64,000 nucleotides of DNA from an uncultured Gammaproteobacteria bacterium (GCA_963822465.1 CAWGHP010000010.1:284149-348148); one strand, 5' to 3'. Positions 935-35,913 are shown, numbered from the stretch's first letter. Numbers and translations: made by a program. The notes: generated by a model from the sequence alone, not told the origin.

Positions 935-3900
935 ATGAGACGATTCGCGGCCTTCGTTTCCGGCATCTTGCTGGCGGGCGCGCTGATGGCCGGGCCGCCG
1001 CCGGCGGCGCCCTGGTTCGAGGTGCTGCGCGTGGCCGATGGCCTGCCTTCGAACGAGATCTACGCCCTGCGCCAGGGCGCCGATGGCTACATCTGGATCG
1101 GCACGCGCGACGGGCTGGCCCGCTACGACGGCGTCGATTTCCGCGTCTGGCGACATGATCCGGACGACGCCGCCACGCTGGCCAGCAACGACGTTTCCGC
1201 CCTGCTCATCGACCGCCGCGGGCGGGTCTGGTGCGGTGGCGAGGCGGGCGGCCTCAACGAGATGCTGGACGACGGCGGGTTCCGCCGCTACCGGCACGAC
1301 AAGGACGATCCCGGCAGCCTGAGCAGCGACGACGTTTTCGCCATCGCCGAGGACGCGGCCGGCACGATCTGGGTCGGCACTTACCTCGGCGGCCTCAACC
1401 GCCTGCGCGACGATGGCCGTTTCGAGCACATCGAATACGACGCGGATGATCCGGCCAGCCTGCGCTCGACCACGGTCATCGCACTGGCCGCCGATGCCGC
1501 GGGCCGGCTCTGGATCGGCACCGACGACGGTCTCGACGTGCGCGGTGCGGACGGCCGCATCACGCATGTCGACCTGCCGATGTTCGCCGGCAAGGCCGAC
1601 AAGCTGCAGATCGGCAGCCTGCGCCCGCAGGCCGACGGCAGCATGCTGGTCGGCACCGACCATGGCGTCGTCCGCGTGTCGCCCGGACTCGCCGTCGCCG
1701 GGCAGGTCTTTGCGCCGCCTTCGCGCATGCCGACGATGGCCATGCTGGCCGAATCCGGTGGCGATTTCTGGATCGGAACGACCGCCGGACTGTGGCGTCT
1801 CGATGCCGATGGCGAGCAGCGTTTCGGCGGTGGCGATGCCTTGCCCGGCGACCTGCCTTCGACGCGCGTCATGGACATCCTGCGCGATCGCGAAGGCGGC
1901 CTGTGGATCGCCCTGCTCGATGGCGGCATCGCCCGCTTGCCGGCGCGCTGGCGCAACTTCTCGGTCTGGCGCCATCGTCCGGGGCAGGAAGACAGCCTGC
2001 AGCATGCCGTTTCCGATGCGGCCAGTGTCGACAGCGAAGGCGCCATCTGGGTCAGCAGCGCGCGCGATGGCATCGACCGCATCGATCCGGTCCGCGGCAC
2101 GGTGGAACGCTTCGGTGCGCGCCTCGACGTGCAGGGCAGCCCGCTGCGTTCGCTGCTGCACATCGGCAATCATCTCTGGGTGGGCCACTACCGGGGGATC
2201 CGGCGCTATGCACTGGATGACCACGGCCATGTCGAGTTGCCGGTCGCCGAGGACTCGCCGACGGCGCTGCCGCGTGGCTACGTCAACCGCCTGCTGCAGG
2301 CGCCCGATGGCGGCCTCTGGGCCAGCCTGCGCGGTGGCGGCGTCGCCCACATCGATCCGGCGACCCTCGCCATACGCGGTTATTCGGTGGCGACCGCGAC
2401 CCTCGGCAGTGCCGACATCACCGGCATGGTCCTCGACGGCCAGTCCGATCCCTGGATATCGACCAGCGATGGCGTCGAACGCTACAACCGGGCCGGCGAC
2501 CGTTTCGAGCGCATGGCCGGTGCTCCCGGTGAAGCGGTGCAGGCGCTTGCGTTCGACGCCGACGGCTCGCTCTGGCTGCACCGGCTCGGTGCGCTCGAAC
2601 GCTTCGAGCTCGAGGCGGGCAGGCTGGTGCGCAGGGCAAGTTTCGCCAGCGCCGAGGGTTGGCCCGCCATGCAGGTCAGCGATCTGCATGTCGGCGCCGA
2701 TCATTCGGTCTGGGCGGCCAGCCAGCGCGGGCTGTGGCGCGTCGACGGGCGCAGCCATGCCGTTCGCCAGTTCAGCGAGCGCGACGGATTGCCGAGCGCG
2801 GAACTGATCGGCGCCTTTGCCGTCGCCGGCGACGGCGTCGTCTATGCCAACACGCGCTCCGGCCTGGTCGGTTTCGACCCGCGGGCGATTTCGCTCGAAT
2901 CCCCGCCGCCGCCCCTGCAGGTGTCGGGACTCACGGTGCGTCGCGACGGCAACGTGATCGGCCTCGACGCACGCCAACCCGTGCGGCTCGGCTATTCCGA
3001 CCGCGACCTGACGATCGAGGCGCGCGTGCTCTCGTTCCTCAATCCGGGTGGCAACAGCTACCGGTTCAAGCTCGATGGCTTCGACAAGGACTGGGTGGAC
3101 ACCGGCGCGCGTGGCGAACGCGTCTTCTCGCAGTTGCCGGCCGGCGACTATCGCCTGCGGGTGCAGGCGGCGAATGCCGATGGCATCCGCAGCGAGACCA
3201 TCGAGTCGGTGCCGATCACGGTGGCCGCGGCGCCGTGGCGGACGCCGGGCGCCTACCTGGCCTATCTGGTGGCGGCGGCGCTCGGCGTGCTGCTGGTCCT
3301 GCGTGCCTGGCGCCATCGCGTCGACCAGCAGCATGCCGTGGCGCTCGCCGAGGAACAGCGTCGCGCCGCCGAACAGCTGGCCGAGGCCAAGTCCGCGTTC
3401 CTCGCCAACATGAGCCACGAGATCCGCACGCCAATGACGGGCGTGCTCGGCATGGCCGAGCTGCTGCGCGCCACCGAACTCGATGAACGCCAGCGTGGCT
3501 ATGCCGAGGCGATCAGCCGTTCGGGCGATCTCATGCTGCGCCTGGTCAACGACAGCCTCGACCTCGCCCGCATCGAAGCCGGCAAGCTCGAGCTCGACCG
3601 GCGCGCCGTGGATCCCTCGCAGGTGGTTCGCGAAGTCGTTGCGCTCGAAGCGCCGCTGGCCGCGAAGAAGGGCCTCGTCCTGCTGTCGGACATCGGTGGA
3701 TCGGTGCCGCGCTGGGTCAATGGCGATGCGCTGCGCATCAAGCAGGTCCTGCTCAACCTGATCAGCAATGCGATCAAGTTCACCGAGCGCGGAACGATCC
3801 GGCTGGATCTCGGCAATGCCGCCGACGGCGCCCTCGAGTTCACCGTCAGCGATACCGGGCCGGGCATGAATGCCGACATGCAGGCGCGCCTGTTCGGGCG

Positions 3901-23927: not shown

Positions 23928-24965
23928 ATGGATATTGCCGAGCTGCTCGCGTTTTCGGTCAAGAACAAGGCCTCCGACCTGCATCTGTCGGCCGGGCTGC
24001 CACCGATGATCCGGGTCGACGGCGACGTGCGCCGCATCAACATCCCCTCGCTCGACCACAAGCAGATCCATTCGCTGATCTACGACATCATGTCGGACAA
24101 GCAGCGCCGTGACTACGAGGAATTCCTCGAAGTCGACTTCTCCTTCGAGATTCCGGGACTGGCGCGCTTCCGCGTCAACGCCTTCAACCAGAACCGCGGC
24201 TCGGGCGCGGTGTTCCGGACGATTCCCTCCGAAGTGCTTTCGCTGGAGGATCTGGGCTGTCCGAAGATCTTCCGCGAGCTGATCGAGCAGCCGCAGGGAC
24301 TGATCCTCGTCACCGGCCCGACCGGCTCCGGCAAGTCGACCACGCTGGCGGCGATGATCGACCACGTCAACAAGCACGAATACGCCCACATCCTCAGCGT
24401 CGAGGATCCGATCGAGTTCGTGCACACCTCGCAGAAGTGCCTGATCAACCAGCGCGAGGTGCATCGCGATACGCATGGATTCACCGAGGCGCTGCGCTCG
24501 GCCCTGCGCGAAGATCCCGACTACATCCTGGTCGGCGAGTTGCGCGACCTTGAAACGATTCGCCTCGCGCTGACCGCCGCGGAGACCGGCCACCTGGTGT
24601 TCGCCACCCTGCACACGAGCTCGGCCGCGAAGACGATCGACCGCATCATCGACGTGTTCCCGGCCGGCGAGAAGCCGATGGTGCGCTCGATGCTTTCCGA
24701 ATCCCTGCGCGCGGTGATCTCGCAGTCGCTGCTGAAGAAAGTCGGCGGTGGCCGAATCGCCGCGCACGAAATCATGGTCGGCATCCCGGCGATCCGCAAC
24801 CTGATCCGCGAAGACAAGGTCGCGCAGATGTATTCGTCGATCCAGACCGGCGCCCAGCACGGCATGCAGACCCTCGACCAGTGCCTGCAGGACCTGGTCA
24901 AGCGTGGCCTCGTCACCCGCCAGGCCGCGATGAACTACGCGAAGAACAAGGAAATCTTCAAGTAG
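23928..24965 (+). CDS. pilT: type IV pilus twitching-motility ATPase PilT
   Basis: Last 345 codons of ORF 23742..24965. Sequence is MDIAELLAFSVKNKASDLHLSAGLPPMIRVDG. Walker A is GPTGSGKST; also present are ILVGELRD, TGHLVFATLHT and AHEIM. Confidence 0.93.
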   Translation: MDIAELLAFSVKNKASDLHLSAGLPPMIRVDGDVRRINIPSLDHKQIHSLIYDIMSDKQRRDYEEFLEVDFSFEIPGLARFRVNAFNQNRGSGAVFRTIPSEVLSLEDLGCPKIFRELIEQPQGLILVTGPTGSGKSTTLAAMIDHVNKHEYAHILSVEDPIEFVHTSQKCLINQREVHRDTHGFTEALRSALREDPDYILVGELRDLETIRLALTAAETGHLVFATLHTSSAAKTIDRIIDVFPAGEKPMVRSMLSESLRAVISQSLLKKVGGGRIAAHEIMVGIPAIRNLIREDKVAQMYSSIQTGAQHGMQTLDQCLQDLVKRGLVTRQAAMNYAKNKEIFK

Positions 24966-25276
24966 CGATTCAATCACCCGGGCCGGGCCGGAAGGCCGGC
25001 ACGGGACCGCGCGCCATTCCGGTCCGCGCCGATTTGCACTTCTTGCGGTTGCCTCCGGTCTGCGGCGCCAGGGCGCACGGGCGGTTCGCCCGGCCAGCGC
25101 CATCTGCAGCACGCGACGCCATTCATGTTTCGCCGGTTTCGTGACGGTTCGCGCAATTCCCCCGCATTCCCGCGCTCTCATCCTGCAGGCTTCGTTGCAC
25201 TCCGCCTGAAGGCGGATTAAGGTTGAGGTTCGAGTCCCCGCACAGGGGGCGAATGCCACCTGATTGGGGAAACACC

Positions 25277-28060
25277 ATGCGATTGACGAGGATTCTTTGG
25301 CCGCTGGCCTTTGGCGTCGTGCTGGCCGGCGCCAGCGTGCAGGCGTTCGCCGCGAATGCCGACAAGGATGCAACGGTCGAGCAGATCGACAACGCCACGA
25401 TCGTGCAGGCGCAGGGCGTCGACCAGCGTGTCGATTACGCCAGCCTGCGCCGCTTCGGCCCGTGGGACGATCGCAACTACCAGCTGACCCTGGCCGACGT
25501 CGGCCTGCTGCCTGCGGATGACGAGTACCGTTATGGCGTGCCCGCGTTCTTCAAGATCCTCAAGCGCAAGGAAACCGCGGCCGAGGGCTATCCGATCGAG
25601 GAGCACTATCCGCGCGAGATCGACAAGGAGTTCGAGATCCGCTTCGGTGGCCTGCTCCAGGACGGCGTGCTGCACCGGCGCGGCCTCGGCATCTACTCGC
25701 ACCCCGATCCGGCCAATCCGCCGCAACCGCTGATCTACGCCACCGATCCGCTGCCGCATGCCGTGCCGGTCAACGGCGAAACGCCGATGGCCATCGGCGA
25801 CAACGAAACCTCGATCAAGTACAACCCGGTCGATCCGCAGATCGTCATCGCCGGATCCAATGGCCCGGGCGGCCAGGTGCAGAACTACTCGACCGATGGC
25901 GGCGTGACCTGGTCCAGCGCCGGCGTCCTGCCGAGCACCTGCTGCGATCCGGCCATGGAATGGTCGGCCGACGGCACGGTGGCCTATGCCGCGACGCTGC
26001 CTTCGTCGGGCGGCTTGCGCGCCGGCCTGTTCCGCTCCACCAACAATGGCCAGACCTGGGGCCCGGTGATCATCGTTTCCACCGGCAGCTCGGACAAGGA
26101 ATGGATCCACGTCGACAAGTCGCCGAGTTCGCCGTACCTGGAGAATGTCTACCTGACCTGGCACCAGTCCAACGTGATGTTCTTCTCGCGCTCGGTCGAC
26201 AAGGGCCTGACCTGGTCGACGCCGATCTCGTTCCCGAGCGCGGCGCGCGGCATCGGCAGCGACATCACCACCGACAGCGCCGGCAACATCTACTACATCT
26301 GGCCGAGCAGTTCATCGACCACGGCGAACATCTACATGGTCAAGTCGACCGACGGCGGAGCGACCTTCGGCGCGCCGGTAGCGGTGCAGCCGCTGTTCGA
26401 CACCTTTGATTTCCCGATTCCGTCGATGGAGACACGGCGCGCGTTCATCTACATCGCCGCCGACACCGATCGTTCCGGCGGCCCGTTCAATGGGCGTGTC
26501 TATGCCGCCTATACCGCGCTGCATCCGAGCAGCGGAAACACCACGGCGACCAACCACGCCTGGATCCAGGTTGCCTATTCGGATGATGGCGGTGCGACCT
26601 GGGCGCTGACCACGACGCCGCATTCGGAGGCCGACATCGCGACCGTCGACCGCTACCACCCGTGGCTCGAAGTCGACCAGGGCGGTGCCGTGCATATCGG
26701 CTTCTACGACACGCGCAATTCGCCCAACCGCACCGGTGTGGATTTCTACTACAACTATTCGGTCGATGGCGGCGCCACCTGGCTCGACGAGACGCGCGTT
26801 TCCGCGGCCACGTCGGTGAACATCACCAATGGCCAGGAATGGGGCGATTACAACGGCATCACGGCCGGCCCGGTCGAGGCGGCGATGAGCTGGACCGACA
26901 ATCGCCCGGGTGGCGGCGGCACGCCGGTGCAGAAATCCTACGTCGGACGCGTGCAGAACCTCGCCGCGGGCCCGACTTACACGATGGGCAGCGCAGATCC
27001 GGCCAGCGTCGCCGTCTGCGCCGGCGACCCGGTGCCGCCGCGCACAATCACCCTTCAGGGCTTTTCGGGCTACACCGGTTCAGCCACCATCTCCTTCCCC
27101 GGTCTCAATGCGGCGGTGTTCCCGAGCGCCACCGCGACACCAAATCCAGTCACTGTCGGCCCCAGTCCGGCGAATTCGACGATCAACCTGACCACGTCGG
27201 GCGCCGCGTCGACCGGCAACTACCCGGTCAACGTGCAGGCCAGCGATGGCGGCGCGCCGGCGATCGTTCGCCAGGTCGGCTTCACGGTCAACCTCGCCGC
27301 CGGCGTGCCGGCCGCGTCGACCCTGATGATGCCGCCCGACAATGCCACCGACATCGGCCTGACCCCGACCTTCACCTGGTCCGCCGTTGCCGGCGCCGTG
27401 GACTACACGGTCGAGATCGCCACCGACGCGGGCTTCGCCAGCATCGTCGCCAGTGGCACTGTTGCAGGCACCAGCTTCACCCCGGCCTCGACCCTCGATC
27501 CCGAGACGCCCTATTTCTGGCGCGTGCGTGCCAGCAATGCCTGTGGCGACGGCAGCTACTCGGCGACTTCGAGGTTCACGACCGGTTTGCTGATCTGCTT
27601 CACGGGACCGGTGGCGATTCCCGACAACAACACGACCGGCGCGACCGGAACCCTCGCCGTTTCCGCCGGCGGCACGCTCGCCGACCTGAATCTCGACGTG
27701 GTGATCAACCATACCTATCCCGGCGATCTCGAGTTGCAGCTCAGCAACGGCACGACGTCGGTGACCCTGGCGACCCGCCTCGGCGGCAGCGGTTGCGGCA
27801 CCGACAATGTCGATGTCACCTTCGACGACGAAGCGGCCGGGCCGGTGGTCTGCGGCTCGACGCCGCCCGGCATCAGCGGCATCCGCCAGCCGGCCAATCC
27901 GCTCAGCGTGTTCGACGGGTCGCCGCTGTCGGCTTCGTGGTCGCTCAAGGCGATCGATCGCGCCAACATTGATACGGGCACGATCGAGTCGTTCTGCCTG
28001 GTGCCGACCCTGTTGCCCGACCTGATCTACGCCGACGGCTTCGATCCGCCGCCTCCGTAG
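25277..28060 (+). CDS. secreted BNR/Asp-box (sialidase-fold) repeat protein with FN3-like and proprotein-convertase P-domain-like modules
   Basis: ORF 25223..28060. Signal is MRLTRILWPLAFGVVLAGASVQAFA. Asp-boxes are YSTDGGVTWS, RSTNNGQTWG, SVDKGLTWS, KSTDGGATFG, YSDDGGATWA and YSVDGGATWL. The P-domain-like part is HTYPGDLELQLSNGTTSVTL...WSLKAIDRANIDTGTIESFCL. The protein ends LIYADGFDPPPP. Confidence 0.85.
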   Translation: MRLTRILWPLAFGVVLAGASVQAFAANADKDATVEQIDNATIVQAQGVDQRVDYASLRRFGPWDDRNYQLTLADVGLLPADDEYRYGVPAFFKILKRKETAAEGYPIEEHYPREIDKEFEIRFGGLLQDGVLHRRGLGIYSHPDPANPPQPLIYATDPLPHAVPVNGETPMAIGDNETSIKYNPVDPQIVIAGSNGPGGQVQNYSTDGGVTWSSAGVLPSTCCDPAMEWSADGTVAYAATLPSSGGLRAGLFRSTNNGQTWGPVIIVSTGSSDKEWIHVDKSPSSPYLENVYLTWHQSNVMFFSRSVDKGLTWSTPISFPSAARGIGSDITTDSAGNIYYIWPSSSSTTANIYMVKSTDGGATFGAPVAVQPLFDTFDFPIPSMETRRAFIYIAADTDRSGGPFNGRVYAAYTALHPSSGNTTATNHAWIQVAYSDDGGATWALTTTPHSEADIATVDRYHPWLEVDQGGAVHIGFYDTRNSPNRTGVDFYYNYSVDGGATWLDETRVSAATSVNITNGQEWGDYNGITAGPVEAAMSWTDNRPGGGGTPVQKSYVGRVQNLAAGPTYTMGSADPASVAVCAGDPVPPRTITLQGFSGYTGSATISFPGLNAAVFPSATATPNPVTVGPSPANSTINLTTSGAASTGNYPVNVQASDGGAPAIVRQVGFTVNLAAGVPAASTLMMPPDNATDIGLTPTFTWSAVAGAVDYTVEIATDAGFASIVASGTVAGTSFTPASTLDPETPYFWRVRASNACGDGSYSATSRFTTGLLICFTGPVAIPDNNTTGATGTLAVSAGGTLADLNLDVVINHTYPGDLELQLSNGTTSVTLATRLGGSGCGTDNVDVTFDDEAAGPVVCGSTPPGISGIRQPANPLSVFDGSPLSASWSLKAIDRANIDTGTIESFCLVPTLLPDLIYADGFDPPPP

Positions 28061-28084
28061 TCCATCGCGTCCGCAGTCAATCGA

Positions 28085-28114
28085 CCGCGCCCCAGCAGGG
28101 GCGCGGTTTTTTTT
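28085..28114 (+). terminator. rho-independent terminator
   Basis: Stem-loop ccgcgcccc-agca-ggggcgcgg followed by tttttttt. Confidence 0.85.
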
Positions 28115-28302
28115 GGCCGGGCCCTCTTCACCGACGGGCAATCGGCGCGCGTCGGGGCGCGGGCGGCGCAGGCGCCGGAAGGCGATCCATCGGTCTCCGG
28201 ATGGATGTAAAACACGCCCCGCCTGAACTACCATCGCGCCCCGGATCAACAGCTGGTCCGCCCGCCGACGGATCGTCGGCTTCCGGGATTGGGGAAAAAT
28301 CG

Positions 28303-31218
28303 ATGAAGATGCGTGTAGCCGGCCTTTCGATGGCGCTGGGCGTGTTCGCGTTGGCGGGCAATGCCCTGGCCGCCGCTGCCTGGCCCACTGTCTCGCAGCA
28401 ACTCGCGGCTGACCGGGTCCAGCCCGGAAGTGCGCTCGAACAACTGATTCGCGCCAACCAGGACTTCAGCCTGTTGCGCGCGGACGAACTCGCGACCACG
28501 CGACCCGACCTGCCGCCGTGGCTCAAGGTCATCTGGCGCAAGGAGCATCCGAAGGGCAACTACACGGCCGACGATCCGAGCGGCGGCTATCCGCTGGTGC
28601 TGCGCGAAGTCCACGAGTGGATGCTCTCGCACCAGGACCTCAAGCCCGGCACGCCGGATTCCGACCAGTTCCCGAAATCGAACGTGGATCCGGACGCGCC
28701 GATCGTCAATGGCGAGCAGCGCGTCTCCGGCCTGCAGACCAGCCCGCGCAGCGAGTCGGATATCCGCGTCAACTACTGGGATCCGCAGAAGATCATCTCC
28801 GCTTCGAACAACATCAGCAGCGCCGGAACGCAGGCGCAGTTCTATTCCACCGATGGCGGGGCGACCTGGGGCCAGACCAACCTGAGCCTCGCCAGCGGCG
28901 ACGCGTTCCATTCCGACCCGACCGTCGAATGGACATCCAACGGCACCGCGTGGTCGAGCACGCTCGGCATCAATTCTGCCGGCAACGTCCTCAAGCTGCG
29001 TACCTACAGTTCGGCCGATTCGGGCGCGACCTGGACGCTAGAGGCGACGCCGTCGGCCGCGCAGACCGCGGTCGACAAGCAGATGCACTGGGTCGACCAC
29101 AGCGCCAGCTCGGCCTGCAAGGATTACCAGTACATCATCTACCACAACAACGCGCCGGCCTACATCACGACCAGGAACGCGGGCACCGGCACCTGGGGCG
29201 CGCCGATCCAGGTCAGCGGCGCCGAGTCGACCGGCACCGCCATCGGCAGCGACATCAAGTCCAACTCCGCCGGTGACGCCTTCGGCTTCTGGCCGACCAC
29301 GACCAATCGCAAGGTCTTCGTCACCAAGAGCAGCAACTGCGGCGTTGCCTGGGCTACCCCGGTGCAGGTGGCCACGACGTTCGACGGCTACGACATCGGC
29401 GTACCGGGCTTCGCCAATCGGCGCATCCTGATCTACGTCTCCGGCGGCACCTATCGCTCGGCGACGAAGAACATGGTCTATGCCTCCTGGACCGACCTCT
29501 CGGGCGAGACCGGTTGCACGGTCGCCGCCAACGAGCCGGGCTCCAACGTCGCCTCGACCTGCAAGACGCGCATCTGGTTCGCGCGTTCGCTGGATGGCGG
29601 CGCCACCTGGCAACCCAAGGTCATGCTCAACAACCAGGCTTCGCTGAACGACCAGTTCAACCAGTGGCTGGTGGTGGATGAAGCGACCGGCGGCGTCGGC
29701 ATCATCTACTACGACACCGTTGCCGATTCCGGCCGCAAGAAGACCCATCTCTACTACCAGTCCTCGTTCGACGACGGCGCGACCTGGATCCCGGCGGTGC
29801 AGGTCACCTCGGCGCAGACCGACGAGACCACCGGCGGCCAGGACAGCGGCAACCAGTACGGCGACTACAACGCGTTCTCGGGCATCGCCGGCACCTTCTT
29901 CCCGTCGTGGACCGACCGCCGCGCCGGACTCAAGGAAGAGATCTGGACCGCGAAGATCCTCGATCTGGTCTGCACCGCGCCGGCCTCGCCGGTCGCCGGT
30001 GCGGCGACGGCGGTCGCGCCCAACCAGGTCGAACTCAGCTGGTCGAACGGCGCGCCGGCGGCAACCACGTTCAATGTCTATCGGGCGAATGGAACCTGCG
30101 CTTCACCCGGGTCCTTCGGCGCCATCGCCAGCGGACTCGCCGGCAGCCCGTTCACCGACAGCACGGTCTCGGGCGGCCTGACCTACGCCTACAAGGTTTC
30201 CGGAGTCGATGCATCGGGTTCCTGCGAATCCGCGCAAAGCGCCTGCCTCGAGGCCACCGCGACCGGCCAGTGCACCCTGGGCGCCACCTTCGGCGGCCTC
30301 GACACGGCGAGCAATTCGGCAACGGCGACCTGCACCAACAACCTCGGCTGGACGGCGGCCGTCGCGCAGTGCGCCGGGCCGGTCAGCTACAACGTCTACC
30401 GCGACACGACCAGCGGATTCGCGCCGTCGCTCGCCAACCGGATTGCCAGCGGCGTCAGCGGCACTTCCTACCTCGACAGCGATTCGCTGGCCAGCGGGAC
30501 CCGCTACTACTACGTCGTGCGTGCCGTGGACGCCTCCAACGGCGTGATCGATCCCAATAGCGTGCAGCGCAGCGCCGTGCCGACCGGTCCGATCGCGAGC
30601 GCCAACCTGGTCGATACCTTCGAGGCCGCCGGCGGCTTCGACACGGCAGGCTGGACGCACGCCGCGCTCAGCGGCGCCAATGACTGGACCTGGTCCAGCG
30701 CGCAGAGCCAGACGCCGAGCCACTCGTGGGCATCTGCCGAGTTGCCCTCGGTGTCCGATCGCGTGCTGACCACGCCAAGCCTGACCGCGCAGGCAAACAC
30801 GACGCTGAGCTTCTTCCATACCTTCGCGTTCGAGGGCACGCTGGCGACATGCTACGACGCCGGCACGCTGGAAATCTCGACCGACGCCGGCGCAAGCTGG
30901 AGCGTCGTGCCGGATGCCGCTTTCACTGCCGGCGGCTTCAACGGCACGGTCAATTCCGGCTTCGGCAATCCGATCGGCGGCAAGCGCGCGTGGTGCGCGG
31001 GCACGATCGGGGCGATGACCGAAGTCGGCGTCAACCTCGGCGCCTACGCGGGCCAGCAGTTCCAGCTGCGCTGGCACGAAGGCGACGACAGCTCGGCGAT
31101 CGTGACCGGCTGGTTCGTCGACAGCGTGACGATCAGCAATGTCGGTACCGCCAGCGCGTGCAGCACCGGCACCAACGACTTCATCTTCGTCGACGGCTTC
31201 GATCCACCGCTTCGCTGA
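28303..31218 (+). CDS. secreted BNR/Asp-box repeat protein with FN3-like modules and a C-terminal MAM/jelly-roll-like (choice-of-anchor-type) domain
   Basis: ORF 28201..31218. Start is MKMRVAGLSMALGVFALAGNALA, behind gattggggaaa (the same 5-prime context as at 25277). Asp-boxes are YSTDGGATWG, SSADSGATWT, RSLDGGATWQ and SSFDDGATWI. The protein ends FIFVDGFDPPLR. Confidence 0.85.
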   Translation: MKMRVAGLSMALGVFALAGNALAAAAWPTVSQQLAADRVQPGSALEQLIRANQDFSLLRADELATTRPDLPPWLKVIWRKEHPKGNYTADDPSGGYPLVLREVHEWMLSHQDLKPGTPDSDQFPKSNVDPDAPIVNGEQRVSGLQTSPRSESDIRVNYWDPQKIISASNNISSAGTQAQFYSTDGGATWGQTNLSLASGDAFHSDPTVEWTSNGTAWSSTLGINSAGNVLKLRTYSSADSGATWTLEATPSAAQTAVDKQMHWVDHSASSACKDYQYIIYHNNAPAYITTRNAGTGTWGAPIQVSGAESTGTAIGSDIKSNSAGDAFGFWPTTTNRKVFVTKSSNCGVAWATPVQVATTFDGYDIGVPGFANRRILIYVSGGTYRSATKNMVYASWTDLSGETGCTVAANEPGSNVASTCKTRIWFARSLDGGATWQPKVMLNNQASLNDQFNQWLVVDEATGGVGIIYYDTVADSGRKKTHLYYQSSFDDGATWIPAVQVTSAQTDETTGGQDSGNQYGDYNAFSGIAGTFFPSWTDRRAGLKEEIWTAKILDLVCTAPASPVAGAATAVAPNQVELSWSNGAPAATTFNVYRANGTCASPGSFGAIASGLAGSPFTDSTVSGGLTYAYKVSGVDASGSCESAQSACLEATATGQCTLGATFGGLDTASNSATATCTNNLGWTAAVAQCAGPVSYNVYRDTTSGFAPSLANRIASGVSGTSYLDSDSLASGTRYYYVVRAVDASNGVIDPNSVQRSAVPTGPIASANLVDTFEAAGGFDTAGWTHAALSGANDWTWSSAQSQTPSHSWASAELPSVSDRVLTTPSLTAQANTTLSFFHTFAFEGTLATCYDAGTLEISTDAGASWSVVPDAAFTAGGFNGTVNSGFGNPIGGKRAWCAGTIGAMTEVGVNLGAYAGQQFQLRWHEGDDSSAIVTGWFVDSVTISNVGTASACSTGTNDFIFVDGFDPPLR

Positions 31219-31411
31219 GCGCAGCGGGCGAGCCCGACCCTGCATGCCGCCGCGCCCGATTCGTCGGGCGCGGCACAGCGCTGCAGGCGGGCAAGCCGGA
31301 CGGCAAGCGGCAAGCCGGCCGCGGGCAGGTGGCCGCTGCGCCGCAGGCCACGGCGCCTCCGTCGCCGATATGCTAGGTTCCTGCCTCTATTCGACCGGGG
31401 GAGTCGTGCGG

Positions 31412-33847
31412 ATGCGGGCAACAACGAGGATCCTGGCGGGAGTTGCGTTGCTGCTGGCAGCGGCCGGCGCCACGGCGGAAACGCGCCACACCACGCCCTG
31501 CATCGACGGACTGGCCGAAGGGTATCCCTGCAACAAGGTCGACCTGATCGGGCATCTCGGCCTGGTCGAGCTTGGCACCACGGCCGGCGGCAGCGGCAAC
31601 GACATGTGGGGCTGGACCGATCCCGATACCGGCAAGGAATATGCGCTGGTCGGCCTCAACAACGGCACCGCCTTCATCGACCTGTCGGATCCCGATCACC
31701 TGCTGCGCGTCGGTAACCTCGCCACGCACAGCAGCAATTCGACCTGGCGCGACATCAAGACCTACGGCTACTACGCCTTCATCGTCTCCGAGGCGGCCGA
31801 CCACGGCATGCAGGTGTTCGACCTGCGCCGCCTGCGCAACGTGGCGACGCCGCCGGCAACCTTCACCGAGGATGCCTGGTACGGCAATTTCGGCCGCGCC
31901 CACAACATCGTCATCAACGAGCAATCGGGCTTCGCCTACGCGGTCGGTTCGCGCCAGGGCACGCAGCAATGCGGCGCCGGCCTGCACATGATCGACATCC
32001 GCAATCCGCTGCTTCCCGTGTTCGCCGGCTGCTTCGGCGCAGACGGCTACACCCACGATGCCCAGTGCATCGTCTACGACGGCCCGGACACCGCGCATGT
32101 CGGGCGCGAGATCTGCTTCGCCGCGAACGAGGACACGCTGACCATCGTCGATGTCGAGAACAAGTCGGTCCCGGTCATGCTGTCGCGCACCGCCTACGCG
32201 GGCTCCAGCTACACGCACCAGGGCTGGCTGACCGCCGATCGCCGCTATTTCCTGCTCAACGACGAACTCGACGAACAGGACTTCGGCCACAACACGCGCA
32301 CCTACGTCTGGAACGTGCAGGACCTCGACGCGCCGCAGCTGGCCTTCGCCTACACCGGTCCGGTGCCGGCGATCGACCACAACCTCTACGTGCACCAGGG
32401 CTACGCCTACGAATCGAACTACCGCAGCGGATTGCGCATCATCGACCTGTCCAATATCGACAGCGGCAGCCTCGCCGAGGCGGCGTACTTCGATACCTAT
32501 CCGGCTTCCGATGACGCGAACTACGGCGGCACCTGGAGCAACTATCCCTATTACGCGAGCGGCCTGGTCGGCATCAGCGACATGAACCGCGGCTTCTTCG
32601 TCGTCGAACCGAACCTCTGCGTGGCGCCGGCGGCGGCGAACGGACTGGTGGCCAATGCCAATGGCGACAACCGCATCGACCTGGCCTGGAACGCCAGTGC
32701 CACCGCGGGTGCCAGCTACAGCGTCGACCGCGTGCTCGGCGGCTGCACTGGCAGCGCCAGCGAGACCATCGCGACGGGATTGCTCTCGCCCGGCTTCAAT
32801 GATGTGTCCGCGTCCGGTGCGGTCACCTACGGTTATCGCGTGCGCAGCGTGGCCGCCTCCGGGCAATGTGCGGCCGCGCCGAGCGCCTGTGTCGAGGCGA
32901 CCACCACCGGTGCCTGCACGGCGCCACCCGCATTCAACGGAATCTCCAGCGCGAACTCGGCCGGCACCGCGCAATGCGCGATCGACCTGGCCTGGCAGTC
33001 GGCGCAGTCCTATTGCGGTGCACAGACGGCGTTCGAGGTCTACCGGTCGGAGGATCCTGCCTTCACGCCGGCGCCGGCCAACCGCGTGGCGTCGGGCATC
33101 GCCGCGCTGTCCTGGCTCGATGCCGCCGTCGCGCCGGCGACCGCCTATACCTATGTCGTGCGCGCCGCCGACAGCGGCAACGGCAGCGTGGACTTCAACA
33201 ACATCCGGCTCACGGCGACTCCCGCCGGCCCGCCCGGTGACGGCGACTATTTCAGCGGTGCCGAAATCGGTACGCCGATCCTTTCCGGCGCCGACGGCAC
33301 GGCCACCACCGACAGCGCGGAAACGCCGCGTCACGTGGCATGGGAGGTCGTCACCGACCAGGCGCACAGCGGAGCACGCAGTTATTACTCGGGCTACAAC
33401 AACTCCGAGTGCCTGTCGATCGGTACCGACACGATCACGCTGACCGCGGCGACCAGTCCGCAGCTCGAATTCTGGACACGCTACGGCATCGAGGCCAATT
33501 GGGATGGCGGCATCGTGCAGGTCTCGACCGACGAGGGCCAGTCATGGAGCACGATCACGCCGGCCGGTGGCTATCCGGGCACGCTGACCCACACCGGCAA
33601 TGCCTGCGGGATTCCGCTCGGCAGCGGCGCCTATACCGGCACCAATCTGGGCTGGACGCGGCAGCAGTTCGACCTGGCCAGCTATGCCGGCCAGGCGATC
33701 CGGCTGCGCTGGCGCTTCGGCACCGATACATCCCAGACCGCCGAGGGCTGGTGGATCGACGATATCCGCGTGACCCATGCCCAGGTGCCGGGCCTGTGCA
33801 CGGCCGGCATCGACAGCATCTTTGCCGACGGCTTCGAGACGCCCTGA
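31412..33847 (+). CDS. secreted LVIVD/choice-of-anchor-B-like propeller protein with FN3-like modules and the same C-terminal jelly-roll-like domain
   Basis: ORF 31139..33847. Start is MRATTRILAGVALLLAAAGATA. The N-terminus is TPCIDGLAEGYPCNKVDLIGH...DMWGWTDPDTGKEYALVG...YAFIVSE. The C-terminal half is collinear with that of 28303..31218. The protein ends SIFADGFETP. Confidence 0.8.
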   Translation: MRATTRILAGVALLLAAAGATAETRHTTPCIDGLAEGYPCNKVDLIGHLGLVELGTTAGGSGNDMWGWTDPDTGKEYALVGLNNGTAFIDLSDPDHLLRVGNLATHSSNSTWRDIKTYGYYAFIVSEAADHGMQVFDLRRLRNVATPPATFTEDAWYGNFGRAHNIVINEQSGFAYAVGSRQGTQQCGAGLHMIDIRNPLLPVFAGCFGADGYTHDAQCIVYDGPDTAHVGREICFAANEDTLTIVDVENKSVPVMLSRTAYAGSSYTHQGWLTADRRYFLLNDELDEQDFGHNTRTYVWNVQDLDAPQLAFAYTGPVPAIDHNLYVHQGYAYESNYRSGLRIIDLSNIDSGSLAEAAYFDTYPASDDANYGGTWSNYPYYASGLVGISDMNRGFFVVEPNLCVAPAAANGLVANANGDNRIDLAWNASATAGASYSVDRVLGGCTGSASETIATGLLSPGFNDVSASGAVTYGYRVRSVAASGQCAAAPSACVEATTTGACTAPPAFNGISSANSAGTAQCAIDLAWQSAQSYCGAQTAFEVYRSEDPAFTPAPANRVASGIAALSWLDAAVAPATAYTYVVRAADSGNGSVDFNNIRLTATPAGPPGDGDYFSGAEIGTPILSGADGTATTDSAETPRHVAWEVVTDQAHSGARSYYSGYNNSECLSIGTDTITLTAATSPQLEFWTRYGIEANWDGGIVQVSTDEGQSWSTITPAGGYPGTLTHTGNACGIPLGSGAYTGTNLGWTRQQFDLASYAGQAIRLRWRFGTDTSQTAEGWWIDDIRVTHAQVPGLCTAGIDSIFADGFETP

Positions 33848-33941
33848 GCGCGGTCGCGGCTTCCGGCTGCGCGCGGTGCCCGACGCAACGGTTCGCGGCC
33901 CGATGCCGGCGCGGGATGGATGGCCTGGCCGCCGCGCAGGC

Positions 33942-33972
33942 AATAAAAAACCCCGGGTGTCGCCACCCGGGG
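33942..33972 (-). terminator. rho-independent terminator of the cold-shock gene
   Basis: On the minus strand, ccccgggtg-gcga-cacccgggg is followed by a T-run (plus-strand aaaaaa at 33945-33950). Confidence 0.8.
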
Positions 33973-33998
33973 CTCTTCATTTCGCAATGGCGCGAAGC

Positions 33999-34208
33999 TC
34001 AGGCAACCTGGACTTCGTCGGCCTGCATGCCCTTCTGGCCCTGCACGGCGACGAACGTCACGCGCTGGCCTTCCTGCAGGGACTTGAAGCCGCTGCCCTG
34101 GATCGAACGGAAATGCACGAACAGGTCGGGGCCGCTTTCCGGGGTGATGAAGCCGAAGCCTTTGGCATCATTGAACCACTTCACGGTACCGTTCTGACGA
34201 TTGGACAT
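33999..34208 (-). CDS. cspA: CspA-family cold-shock protein
   Basis: 69 aa with [15 protein letters not shown] (RNP1) and DLFVHFS-like FVHFRSI (RNP2). Confidence 0.95.
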
Positions 34209-34602
34209 ATCTAACTCCTAACAAACTCAAAAGTAATGGTATTCACGTCCGGGGGAGACCCCGTGGGACGAGACTGAGGTTGCTAAGGAGCGCGCAATCG
34301 GAACGATGGAATCGTGATATTCGACCACATCGGGCCACGATTAACAGTGACCCTGGCAAACACAGTGCGCACACTGTACAGAGGATTGTTAAACAAAGCG
34401 ACTGGGAAAACGAAAAAAGTGCCTTGCCGGACTTGCAAAATCTGCCTCGATATGACGCCCGGGGCCGCAGGTTCCAATAAAACGCATATATAACAACAAC
34501 CTGGCTATGGTTTGCCCCGGTCCGCCACGGCCGGCCGGGGGCCGGTTCCGGTGGCTGTCCCGCTATCGGGCCAGCCCGTTGCCGGTCTGCGGGGAGGGCG
34601 TA

Positions 34603-35913
34603 TCAGGAGCCCTGGGCAGCAACCGGGCGCAGTTTCTCGTGCAGTGCGGCGTATTCCGCGGCCAGGGGTTCGGCCGCCGACGGGCGCGCAAGCAGGGCGG
34701 CGAGCGCAGCCGGTGGCGGCACCGGATGACCGACCAGCGGTTCGACGATCTGCTCGAACTTGGCCGGGTGCGCGGTGGCGATGATGGCCCAATGTCCGTG
34801 CGCGCCGCGTTCTCGCAAAACGTCGAGGACATGGGCGGCGCAGGCGGTATGCGGGCAGAACACTTCGCCGTAGCGGGCGACGCCGGTGCTGATGGCCAAC
34901 CGGATTTCGTCATCGCTGACGGCATGCGCCTGGAATGCGCCACGCAGTGCGTCGGCGTCGGCATACAGCCAGCGCAGCCGCTCGAAATTGCTTGGCGCCC
35001 CGACATCCATCGCGTTGGCCAGCGTCGCCACGCTGTCCTTGGGCTGGTAGGCGTCGCCGGCAAAGAAGTCGGGCAACACGCGATTGGCATTGGTTGCCAG
35101 TGCGATATCCGCGAGCGGAAGCCCGCAGGCACGGGCGAGGATGGCGGCCTGCGCGTTGCCGAGGTTGCCGGTGGGCACGACCACGTTGAGCGGGGCTTGC
35201 GTGGCACGCCAGTGCGACAGCGAAGCATGCGCGTAATAGGCCATCTGCGGCAGCAGGCGCCCGAGGCTGATGCTGTTGGCCGAGCTGAGCGGTACGTGCT
35301 CCTGCAGGTCGCGATCGCCGAGCGCCTGCTTCACCAGGCGCTGGCAGTCATCGAAGCTGCCGGCAACGCGGAACGCGTGGATGTTCTCGCCGAAGCAGCC
35401 CAGCTGGTGGGCCTGGCGCGGTGACACGCGTCCATCGGGATAGAGGATGACGACACGCAGGTTGGGCAGGCCATGGAAGGCTGCCGCGACGGCGGCGCCG
35501 GTGTCGCCCGAGGTGGCGACGAGGATCGTCAGCGGCGGCGCATCGCTGCGGCGCAGGCGCGTCATGCAGCGCGCGAGGAAGCGCGCGCCGAAATCCTTGA
35601 ACGCCGCGGTCGGCCCGTGGAACAGTTCGAGGACATGGGTTTCGGCAACCGGAAGCGCCTTCAGCGGCGCCGCAAAATCGAAGGCTTCGGCGCAGATCGC
35701 ATCGAGCTCGCCAGCCAGCGCATCGCCCGCGAAAAACGGTCTGAGCAGGCGCGCGGCGACCTCCGCCAGCGATTCATCGGCGGCGAAATCGGCCGCGGCG
35801 AAGCGCGGCAGGCTGGCCGGGACGTAGAGGCCGCCATCGGCGGCGAGGCCGGCGATCAGCGCCTGGCTGAGGGCCACCCTGGTGCTGCCATCGCGCGTGG
35901 AAACATAGTTCAT
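34603..35913 (-). CDS. thrC: threonine synthase
   Basis: ORF 34603..35994. Start MNYVSTRDG is at 35913 (ATGA overlap with thrB). Motifs are [17 protein letters not shown] (PLP lysine) and ATSGDTGAA. Confidence 0.92.

Follow-up and report, generated by a model that had tools for sequence, protein, structure and literature searches.

A short DGF[DE] tail recurs at the C-termini of exported proteins with unrelated domains in a variable pilT-thrC slot and beyond

The closest described relatives of the element reported here are signals and modules at the C-termini of exported proteins. The tripartite C-terminal signals (PEP-CTERM/exosortase, GlyGly-CTERM/rhombosortase, MYXO-CTERM, IPTL-CTERM, and LPXTG/sortase) place a short signature on Sec-exported, often choice-of-anchor proteins, together with a transmembrane helix, a basic cluster and a dedicated processing enzyme, and many paralogues per genome carry the motif regardless of their upstream domains. 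The C-terminal domain (CTD) of the type IX secretion system (T9SS; Por_Secre_tail, PF18962), a folded beta-sandwich of 70-100 aa in Bacteroidota and relatives, lacks a transmembrane segment and guides both passage through the outer membrane and attachment; dockerins, modules of ~60-70 aa, bind Ca2+ and dock secreted enzymes onto known cohesin partners; and the beta-signals of outer-membrane proteins (OMPs), like PDZ ligands, are short strand-forming C-terminal peptides recognized in the periplasm by beta-augmentation. Here we describe a tail built around DGF[DE] that closes three adjacent genes in a stretch of 64,000 nucleotides (the window; ~67% GC across its length) from an uncultured Gammaproteobacteria bacterium (GCA_963822465.1, CAWGHP010000010.1:284149-348148). 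The tail is a genuine, conserved, terminus-biased, domain-independent and unannotated motif on exported proteins, and it is unstructured in monomer models.

The three proteins (P1, P2, and P3; Table 1) end in LLPDLIYADGFDPPPP, NDFIFVDGFDPPLR, and IDSIFADGFETP, respectively, each followed by the stop codon, and fit the pattern [ILV][FY]x[DN]GF[DE] plus two to four residues. Only PPPP, PPLR, and TP follow the motif, and there is neither a hydrophobic helix nor a basic tail, as the first-pass annotation of this DNA had stated: the final residues are P, R, and P, and the extreme C-terminus has no basic residue in P1 and P3 and a single R in P2. The tail resembles the tripartite signals in being a short C-terminal signature on Sec-exported, often choice-of-anchor proteins, and in being carried by many paralogues per genome whatever their upstream domains; unlike them, it comes without a helix or basic cluster, and its motif also occurs internally. 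No sorting-signal model was found in the NCBIfam scans (P1-P3 at E <= 0.01; tail-containing fragments at E <= 10), and no tail-specific family up to E = 10 in either Pfam or NCBIfam, where the tail is overlapped just by two models, InhA-like_MAM and rhom_dep_M36, at their ends. There is no sortase, exosortase or rhombosortase among the genes beside tail genes (in the 64-kb window and in fragments of 8-22 kb), and we found no description of the motif in the searchable full-text literature. An IPTL-CTERM-like reading of the 'LVPTL' in P1 was rejected: it is the end of the P-domain, with no transmembrane helix after it.

A six-frame scan of the whole window found DGF[DE] seven times, and three of the seven are the tails of P1-P3, which lie 2-4 residues before the stops of open reading frames (ORFs) of more than 900 codons in that scan. 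The motif occurs at ~5e-5 per codon, so finding it in three out of three adjacent genes has a chance probability of ~1e-10. Since only seven instances exist in six frames and three of them are these termini, chance is excluded. The stops of P1 and P3 are trailed by terminator-like hairpins (Table 1), which indicates that the ORFs truly end after the tail and hide no transmembrane segment. It is true that, with high-GC codon bias, identical peptides are encoded by nearly the same DNA, and that some related ORFs on metagenome contigs are frameshift artefacts; but well over 150 independent homologues, drawn from many assemblies, stop at the same position, terminators follow the stops, and both the rarity and the position statistics of DGF[DE] (see below) speak against an artefact. 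It is hardly credible that the tail arose by chance, from compositional bias or from gene models truncated by premature stops or assembly errors.

We compared the best 120 homologues of P3 (96-49% identity, from Xanthomonadales to Acidobacteriota) and the best 120 of P1, and found the tail motif within the last 30 residues in 109 of the former and 72 of the latter; the orthologues of P1 are 92-43% identical. Both families give the consensus D-x-[ILV]-[FY]-x-[DN]-G-F-[DE], in which the F and the [DE] are invariant and the G is ~90% conserved; across 102 aligned sequences (~50-96% identity), F808 of P3 has a conservation of 90% or more. The linker residues ahead of the tail vary freely, unlike those of the motif, and the tail appears from these alignments to be under purifying selection.

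The residue before the G is almost always D or N (59 D and 35 N in the P3 family; 38 D and 33 N in the P1 family), and D-G and N-G are the two most succinimide-prone dipeptides. The [DN]-G and its flanks could therefore be a maturation site, at which succinimide-type self-cleavage or a protease removes the C-terminal part after export, and some internal instances of the motif (see below) do precede C-terminal domains that look removable. We consider this improbable, since in most cases 0-6 residues follow the motif and there is nothing meaningful to remove, and D/N-G is equally typical of the tight beta-turn at the start of a jelly-roll.

The preceding domains are diverse. The same tail closes MAM, P-domain, FG-GAP, Kelch, HZS_alpha, PMP/beta-helix and unannotated modules, and P1 homologues with a DUF11 added after the P-domain (P0162, P0166, P0167, P0172, and P0173) still terminate in ..IYADGFE; the motif appears to track the terminus, independent of the domain before it. 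Beyond the P1 and P3 families, tail hosts include Dokdonella, Rhodanobacteraceae, Lysobacteraceae, Aquimonas, and Oceanococcaceae. Acidobacteriota (Thermoanaerobaculia, Holophagae, and others) have a long form, h-F-A-D-G-F-E-S-G-D-T-S-A-W-S-x-x-V-P followed by the stop (consensus h-F-x-D-G-F-E-S-G-D-x-S-x-W-S-x-x-V-P), in which 12 polar residues follow the motif, as against 0-6 in the short (Xanthomonadales/Lysobacterales) form; across homologues, 0-16 residues follow GF[DE]. Judged from these sequences, the short tail is the Xanthomonadales/Lysobacterales form of a wider tail found in two phyla. The first-pass annotation had described the tail on the three neighbors alone and as extremely terminal, and both parts proved too narrow: the motif is spread over two phyla, and a minority of its instances are internal, as quantified below.

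Tail genes adjoin other tail genes in the window and at five further loci: L197 has near-identical tandem copies, with tails at 459-478 and 3468-3487, and L018, L089, L090, and L117 each have a second, unseeded tail ORF beside the seeded one. Such clustering points to tandem duplication and to many copies in each genome. It would also be compatible with an acidic-aromatic tail that binds Ca2+, glycan or lipopolysaccharide, or that pairs with like tails into a surface or matrix network: the D/N, D/E, and aromatic residues are conserved, and in many jelly-roll CBM/MAM domains the equivalent N-terminal 'FE' strand helps to form a structural Ca2+ site. We give such a ligand-binding or self-association role little credence, because 7-9 residues are few for an autonomous binding site, the structure models (see below) lend it no support, and tandem duplication explains the clustering equally well.

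To see where the motif lies in proteins at large, we used two position-blind DNA scans: a 17-nt pattern for FADGF[DE] in public genomes and a 20-nt pattern for IFADGF[DE] in metagenomes. Both patterns use high-GC codons, and the frequencies that follow are samples, not censuses. There were at least 122 matches in genomes; among the matches listed, 37 are terminal (16 or fewer residues from the stop), 27 are internal in one cytoplasmic aldehyde-dehydrogenase family, 54 are other internal sites, mostly in cytoplasmic proteins or by chance, and 4 run off the end of the stretch. A hydrophobic residue at position -1 accompanies 33 of the terminal matches and 22 of the internal ones, again among the matches listed. 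In metagenomes there were at least 121 matches, and among those listed 93 are terminal (40 short tails and 53 long tails), 27 are internal, and 1 runs off the end of the stretch. The tail motif is abundant in both kinds of data. The aldehyde-dehydrogenase matches served as an internal, cytoplasmic negative control; their FADGFE lies 46 codons before the stop in many Beta- and Gammaproteobacteria (L005, L006, L014, L015, L017, and 22 further loci).

In 505 high-GC ORFs, taken from the window and from the loci fetched, the motif was matched 67 times; 35 of these matches lie at the C-terminal end (14 or fewer residues after the motif), where 3.7% would be expected (binomial p = 2e-32). A signal-peptide heuristic was positive for 21 of 29 tail ORFs and for 89 of 434 others (Fisher p = 1.2e-8), and by eye about 28 of the 29 tail ORFs have a signal peptide. 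The enrichment of signal peptides among tail proteins that the first-pass annotation had proposed to look for is therefore present; and its fear that the motif might be equally common internally or in cytoplasmic proteins is not borne out, given the terminal bias and this enrichment.

We also asked what the tail looks like in AlphaFold2 (AF2) models, which were built with deep alignments; these are monomers and cannot show partner binding. The model of P3 (ma4da501bcad7) has a mean predicted local distance difference test (pLDDT) score of 87; the last MAM strand spans residues 779-794 and is followed by Cys796, whereas the tail block 801-810 averages a pLDDT of 50 and residues 806-811 fall below 50. 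The model of the long-tail homologue P0115 has a mean pLDDT of 88, and its residues 816-841 are coil with a pLDDT of 41-54. The alternative that the tail is merely the last strand of the preceding domain, which the first-pass annotation had itself put forward, was rejected: in both models the tail has low confidence and lies outside the MAM sandwich, and the upstream domains are unrelated. In these models, the tail behaves as a flexible extension bearing a linear motif.

Homologues of the window proteins show what else can stand at this position. The P3 homologue P0083 carries PF18962, the T9SS CTD, where P3 has its tail; P1-P3 themselves give no match to PF18962/TIGR04183 in the Pfam and NCBIfam scans, and their tails measure 9-13 aa. 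The DGF[DE] tail shares with the T9SS CTD the C-terminal position and the lack of a transmembrane segment, but it comprises 8-20 residues and is modeled as unstructured. Distant gammaproteobacterial homologues of P1 (P0211, P0213, P0215, P0216, P0218, P0229, P0231, P0233, P0237, and P0240) have another recurring ending, TSP3/dockerin-like, of the form ..DADFNGDGxVNxxDLxxxKxxFFxxxPGPSG. The tail takes the same position as dockerin/TSP3 modules and would share their concept, the docking of a secreted enzyme to a partner through a small module at its C-terminus; it has no sequence relationship to dockerins. Comparison of these homologues, together with the choice-of-anchor B domain of P3 itself, suggests that the tail occupies a slot in which relatives carry recognized C-terminal modules. 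The OMP beta-signal and PDZ ligands offer a likeness of another kind, a short C-terminal strand-forming peptide, but they need a terminal aromatic or hydrophobic residue and a free carboxylate at a fixed distance, whereas the last residue of the tails is P, R, E or D, and its spacing from the motif varies.

The motif is not confined to termini, and the internal instances are of two kinds. In the first, it lies at a domain junction and is followed by a Pro-rich linker (DPAVVPTFPP, DLPPQPE, or DGAGGPVPP) and more domains. For example, two proteins (L002 and L070) have a metalloprotease, then ILFADGFDPAVVPTFPP, then DUF7933 and more; one (L029) has FG-GAP, the motif and a further 389 residues; one (L048) has a beta-helix, the motif and a 188-aa domain; and P1-like proteins (P0148-151 and the P0195-type) continue after the motif with MAM or GEVED. 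The residues after the short tails (PPPP, PPLR, and TP) resemble the start of these linkers. In instances of the second kind, the motif forms strand 1 of an uncharacterized jelly-roll domain of ~200 aa (L069, L104, L167, L188, L221, and P0241-P0336). The jelly-roll of L104 gives weak, sub-threshold matches to PF14099 Polysacc_lyase, from profile position 1 (E 0.01; 16.1 against a cut-off of 29.9), and to CBM_4_9, positions 2-40 (13.3 against 25.9), and a PDB sequence search with the motif-initiated jelly-roll returned solely the xylanase CBM 4xup/4xuo, again below threshold (E 0.6-0.8).

The tail has the same h-F-x-[DN]-G-F-E-(S-G-x-x-S-x-W) pattern as strand 1, or the first hairpin, of CBM4_9/LamG/MAM/choice-of-anchor J jelly-rolls ('..NGxFExGxxxxW..'), and in sequence it would equal an orphan strand 1 (or hairpin) of a CBM4_9/LamG/MAM-type jelly-roll. 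Unlike in those domains, nothing follows the tail in the window proteins and in most instances, so there is no jelly-roll in cis; its conservation in this orphan-strand state is the unusual point. The C-terminal edges of two models, PF20773 (positions ~164-183) and NF038111 (positions ~1165-1181), align with the long tail, ..LIFADGFESGDTSAW, and the motif seems to have been absorbed into the InhA-like_MAM and NF038111 models without being recognized as a separate element.

Two side observations concern the motif-initiated jelly-rolls. L104, a metagenome-assembled genome of Chloroflexota, encodes two paralogous Rhs/YD-repeat proteins with a PT-rich linker and then an internal jelly-roll beginning LIFADGFESGNLNAWS; a monoderm-type phylum thus has the motif-initiated domain too, in proteins that resemble polymorphic toxins. 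A split jelly-roll with a separate, hairpin-less receptor was considered and has no support so far: the 179-aa ORFs that suggested it (P0283, P0295, and others) are frameshift or gene-calling artefacts. At L124 (3619-5540) and L125 (1012-2171) the jelly-roll genes are split by frameshifts, the upstream part with the motif or its remnant sits in another frame, and the spurious 179-aa ORFs begin at a conserved internal Met (AAAM.GT); these split genes are either assembly errors or pseudogenes.

These internal instances give most weight to a different explanation of the tail, as a module-boundary element: a former jelly-roll strand 1 that marks the end of a module and the start of a linker, is shuffled along with it, and has a role in cis (capping, folding or solubility) and not in sorting. 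Tail-only proteins would then be those that have no downstream domain. The internal motifs do lie exactly at junctions before Pro-rich linkers; PPPP, PPLR, and TP do look like linker starts; the motif opens a jelly-roll family with weak resemblance to Polysacc_lyase and CBM_4_9; the InhA-like_MAM and NF038111 models extend through it; and module shuffling is evident at the locus. However, a functionless leftover strand should decay, yet the tail-only state and its F, G, and [DE] are kept at ~50% identity and in two phyla; the tail re-appears at the new terminus after the insertion of DUF11; and the AF2 models of P3 and P0115 show no contact in cis. A single capping role in cis is also unlikely for a tail that follows modules of unrelated structure. 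On balance we judge the module-boundary explanation unlikely, though it deserves to be taken seriously.

The reading that we prefer, tentatively and at somewhat less than an even chance, is that the tail is a C-terminal tag: once Sec has exported the protein, a partner would recognize the tail, probably by beta-strand augmentation, and the tail would help the protein to cross the outer membrane or to be retained on the surface or in the matrix. Sec export would leave the tail exposed on a flexible C-terminal extension; a partner protein would recognize it, probably through strand augmentation with the orphan edge strand; the tag would then direct the protein to, or retain it in, the cell envelope, by outer-membrane passage or by surface/matrix attachment; and the tail would functionally replace the T9SS CTD, dockerin-like or transmembrane-type sorting modules of homologues in other lineages. 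This is close to what the first-pass annotation had proposed, a sorting, secretion or attachment signal. The parts of that proposal that stand are the conservation, the independence of the preceding domain, the presence on signal-peptide proteins and the position in a sorting-module slot; a link to a sorting function or to a cognate gene did not emerge.

Several points weigh against the partner-recognized tag. No co-occurring gene ties the tail to secretion or sorting machinery, and the neighbors in the window are housekeeping genes only (pilT, proC, and the thr operon). Low pLDDT in a monomer model is no proof of disorder in vivo. The motif is not strictly terminal, with ~20-25% of its genuine instances internal, and these fit a structural or junction element as well as they fit a tag. 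With 0-16 residues between the motif and the free C-terminus, the motif does not include the terminal carboxylate. A more specific version of the tag is that the DGF[DE] tail represents a new class of transmembrane-less sorting/attachment signal in Xanthomonadales/Lysobacterales and Acidobacteriota, an orphan strand that docks by beta-augmentation into a dedicated envelope receptor or secretion component, with dozens of large exported proteins per genome as its cargo. We regard that version as doubtful.

The features of the locus are collected in Table 1.

Table 1. Tail-bearing genes, their tails and the bordering features of the slot, in window coordinates.
Feature	Position	Strand	Description or basis
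pilT (345 aa)	23928..24965	+	Upstream border of the variable slot with the three genes
P1 (gene 1), 927 aa	25277..28060	+	ORF; signal peptide, DUF8300/BNR (Asp-box) propeller, Ig/fn3-like units, P-domain, tail
P1 tail D915-L-I-Y-A-D-G-F-D923, then PPPP and stop	28019..28060	+	Sequence
Intrinsic-terminator-like hairpin, 11 bp, 9 GC, with T8 run	28083..28118	+	23 nt past the P1 stop
P2 (gene 2), 971 aa	28303..31218	+	ORF; signal peptide, BNR propeller, two Cys-bracketed fn3-like units, MAM-like jelly-roll, tail
P2 C-terminal block in common with P3 (two fn3-like units, MAM-like, tail)	29968..31218	+	BLASTP
P2 tail D959-F-I-F-V-D-G-F-D967, then PPLR and stop	31177..31218	+	Sequence
P3 (gene 3), 811 aa	31412..33847	+	ORF; signal peptide, choice-of-anchor B (LVIVD) beta-propeller, two fn3-like units, MAM/choice-of-anchor J jelly-roll, tail
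P3 C-terminal block in common with P2	32615..33847	+	BLASTP
P3 tail D801-S-I-F-A-D-G-F-E809, then TP and stop	33812..33847	+	Sequence
Terminator-like hairpin downstream of P3	33951..33982	+	Sequence
thrC	34603-35913	-	Downstream border of the same variable slot

The first-pass description of three adjacent plus-strand genes with signal peptides and shuffled modules holds in full. The proteins begin with MRLTRILWPLAFGVVLAGASVQAFA (P1), MKMRVAGLSMALGVFALAGNALA (P2), and MRATTRILAGVALLLAAAGATA (P3), and their signal peptides were called by eye, by a crude heuristic and, for P3, from the N-terminal helix (residues 2-18) of the AF2 model. BNR/Asp-box matches above the cut-off were found in P1 (PF13088 BNR_2, 35.7 against 31.4 bits; PF02012 BNR, 33.6 against 27) and in P2 (PF02012, 28.4 against 27), so the N-terminal domain of both is, by profile match, a BNR/Asp-box propeller. 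The two propellers are related, as had been noticed from the sequence (BLASTP, 29% identity over 743 columns, E 5e-54, covering the N-terminal ~700 residues), and so are the C-terminal blocks of P2 and P3 (residues 556-969 and 402-811, 34% over 436 columns, E 7e-61). The P-domain-like module recognized earlier in P1 matches the proprotein-convertase P-domain PF01483 (P_proprotein) at residues 803-908 (24.4 against a cut-off of 21), and P2 matches the Reelin_subrepeat-B/MAM-like PF21471 (42 against 27). In P3, the N-terminal propeller had been assigned to the LVIVD/choice-of-anchor B type, in agreement with a match to TIGR04312 at residues 29-399 (501.6 bits against a cut-off of 100, E 1.4e-150); further matches are to InhA-like_MAM PF20773 (65.9 against 26.9, E 4.6e-18) and to choice_anch_J NF038128 (30.9 against 30). 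Foldseek comparison of the P3 model with structures returned propeller plus tandem-FN3 architectures. For its propeller (31412-32620), the top single-domain superposition was the phosphotriesterase propeller of Sphingobium sp. TCM1 (5hrm; template modeling score 0.52 on the target), a hint from the model that this propeller may be metallo-hydrolase-like.

The bacterium is Dokdonella-like, and the best homologues are found in Dokdonella and other Rhodanobacteraceae. In Dokdonella immobilis, the same slot (pilT to cspA/thrC) contains three tail-bearing genes, the second and third of which are orthologous to P2 and P3; the P2 orthologue (L122 6924-9839) terminates in DYIFVDGFDPPVR. Gene 1 is not orthologous to P1: it is similar in the Ig/fn3 middle only and has MAM in place of the P-domain, and despite this different module it terminates in DVIFADGFDPPPP. 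The slot of another genome (L123) has the P1 orthologue alone, adjoining an S9/S15 peptidase. At both loci (L122 and L123), the pilT orthologue matches PF00437 T2SSE and the flanks are syntenic with the window. Between pilT and thrC lies a variable slot, occupied by secreted proteins that have shuffled modules and bear the tail. Synteny of the slot in the window, L122, and L123 gave no conserved operon partner or recurrent accessory gene. The D. immobilis slot additionally holds a 2OG-Fe(II) oxygenase, a 281-aa lipoprotein-like gene and cspA beside the non-orthologous tail-bearing gene 1.

As the first-pass annotation had noted, the gene next to pilT is not pilU; and pilU does not follow pilT in any of the three intervals between pilT and the thr operon (window 24966-34602; L122 1664-13220; L123 7247-14011). 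The shared 5' context 'gattggggaaa' of genes 1 and 2, also picked out earlier, is present at 25258-25276 and 28284-28302; it lies 4-5 nt before the ATG and contains a Shine-Dalgarno-like GGGGA core, gene 3 having 'gggggag', and it is probably just the ribosome-binding site.

The tail is possibly a new class within the theme of C-terminal tags on exported proteins, of which it would be a variant. Should it prove to be a recognition tag, soil and wastewater Xanthomonadales and Acidobacteriota would have a large class of cargo that has so far gone unseen, made up of big multi-domain proteins with propellers, beta-helices or proteases. The tag would also point to an unrecognized step of sorting, secretion or surface retention in diderm bacteria, one that works without a membrane-anchored signal. 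If it is merely a module boundary, it documents jelly-roll strand 1 plus a linker as a junction in the domain shuffling of secreted proteins. In practical terms, it gives annotators a simple C-terminal signature and experimenters a 9-residue handle.

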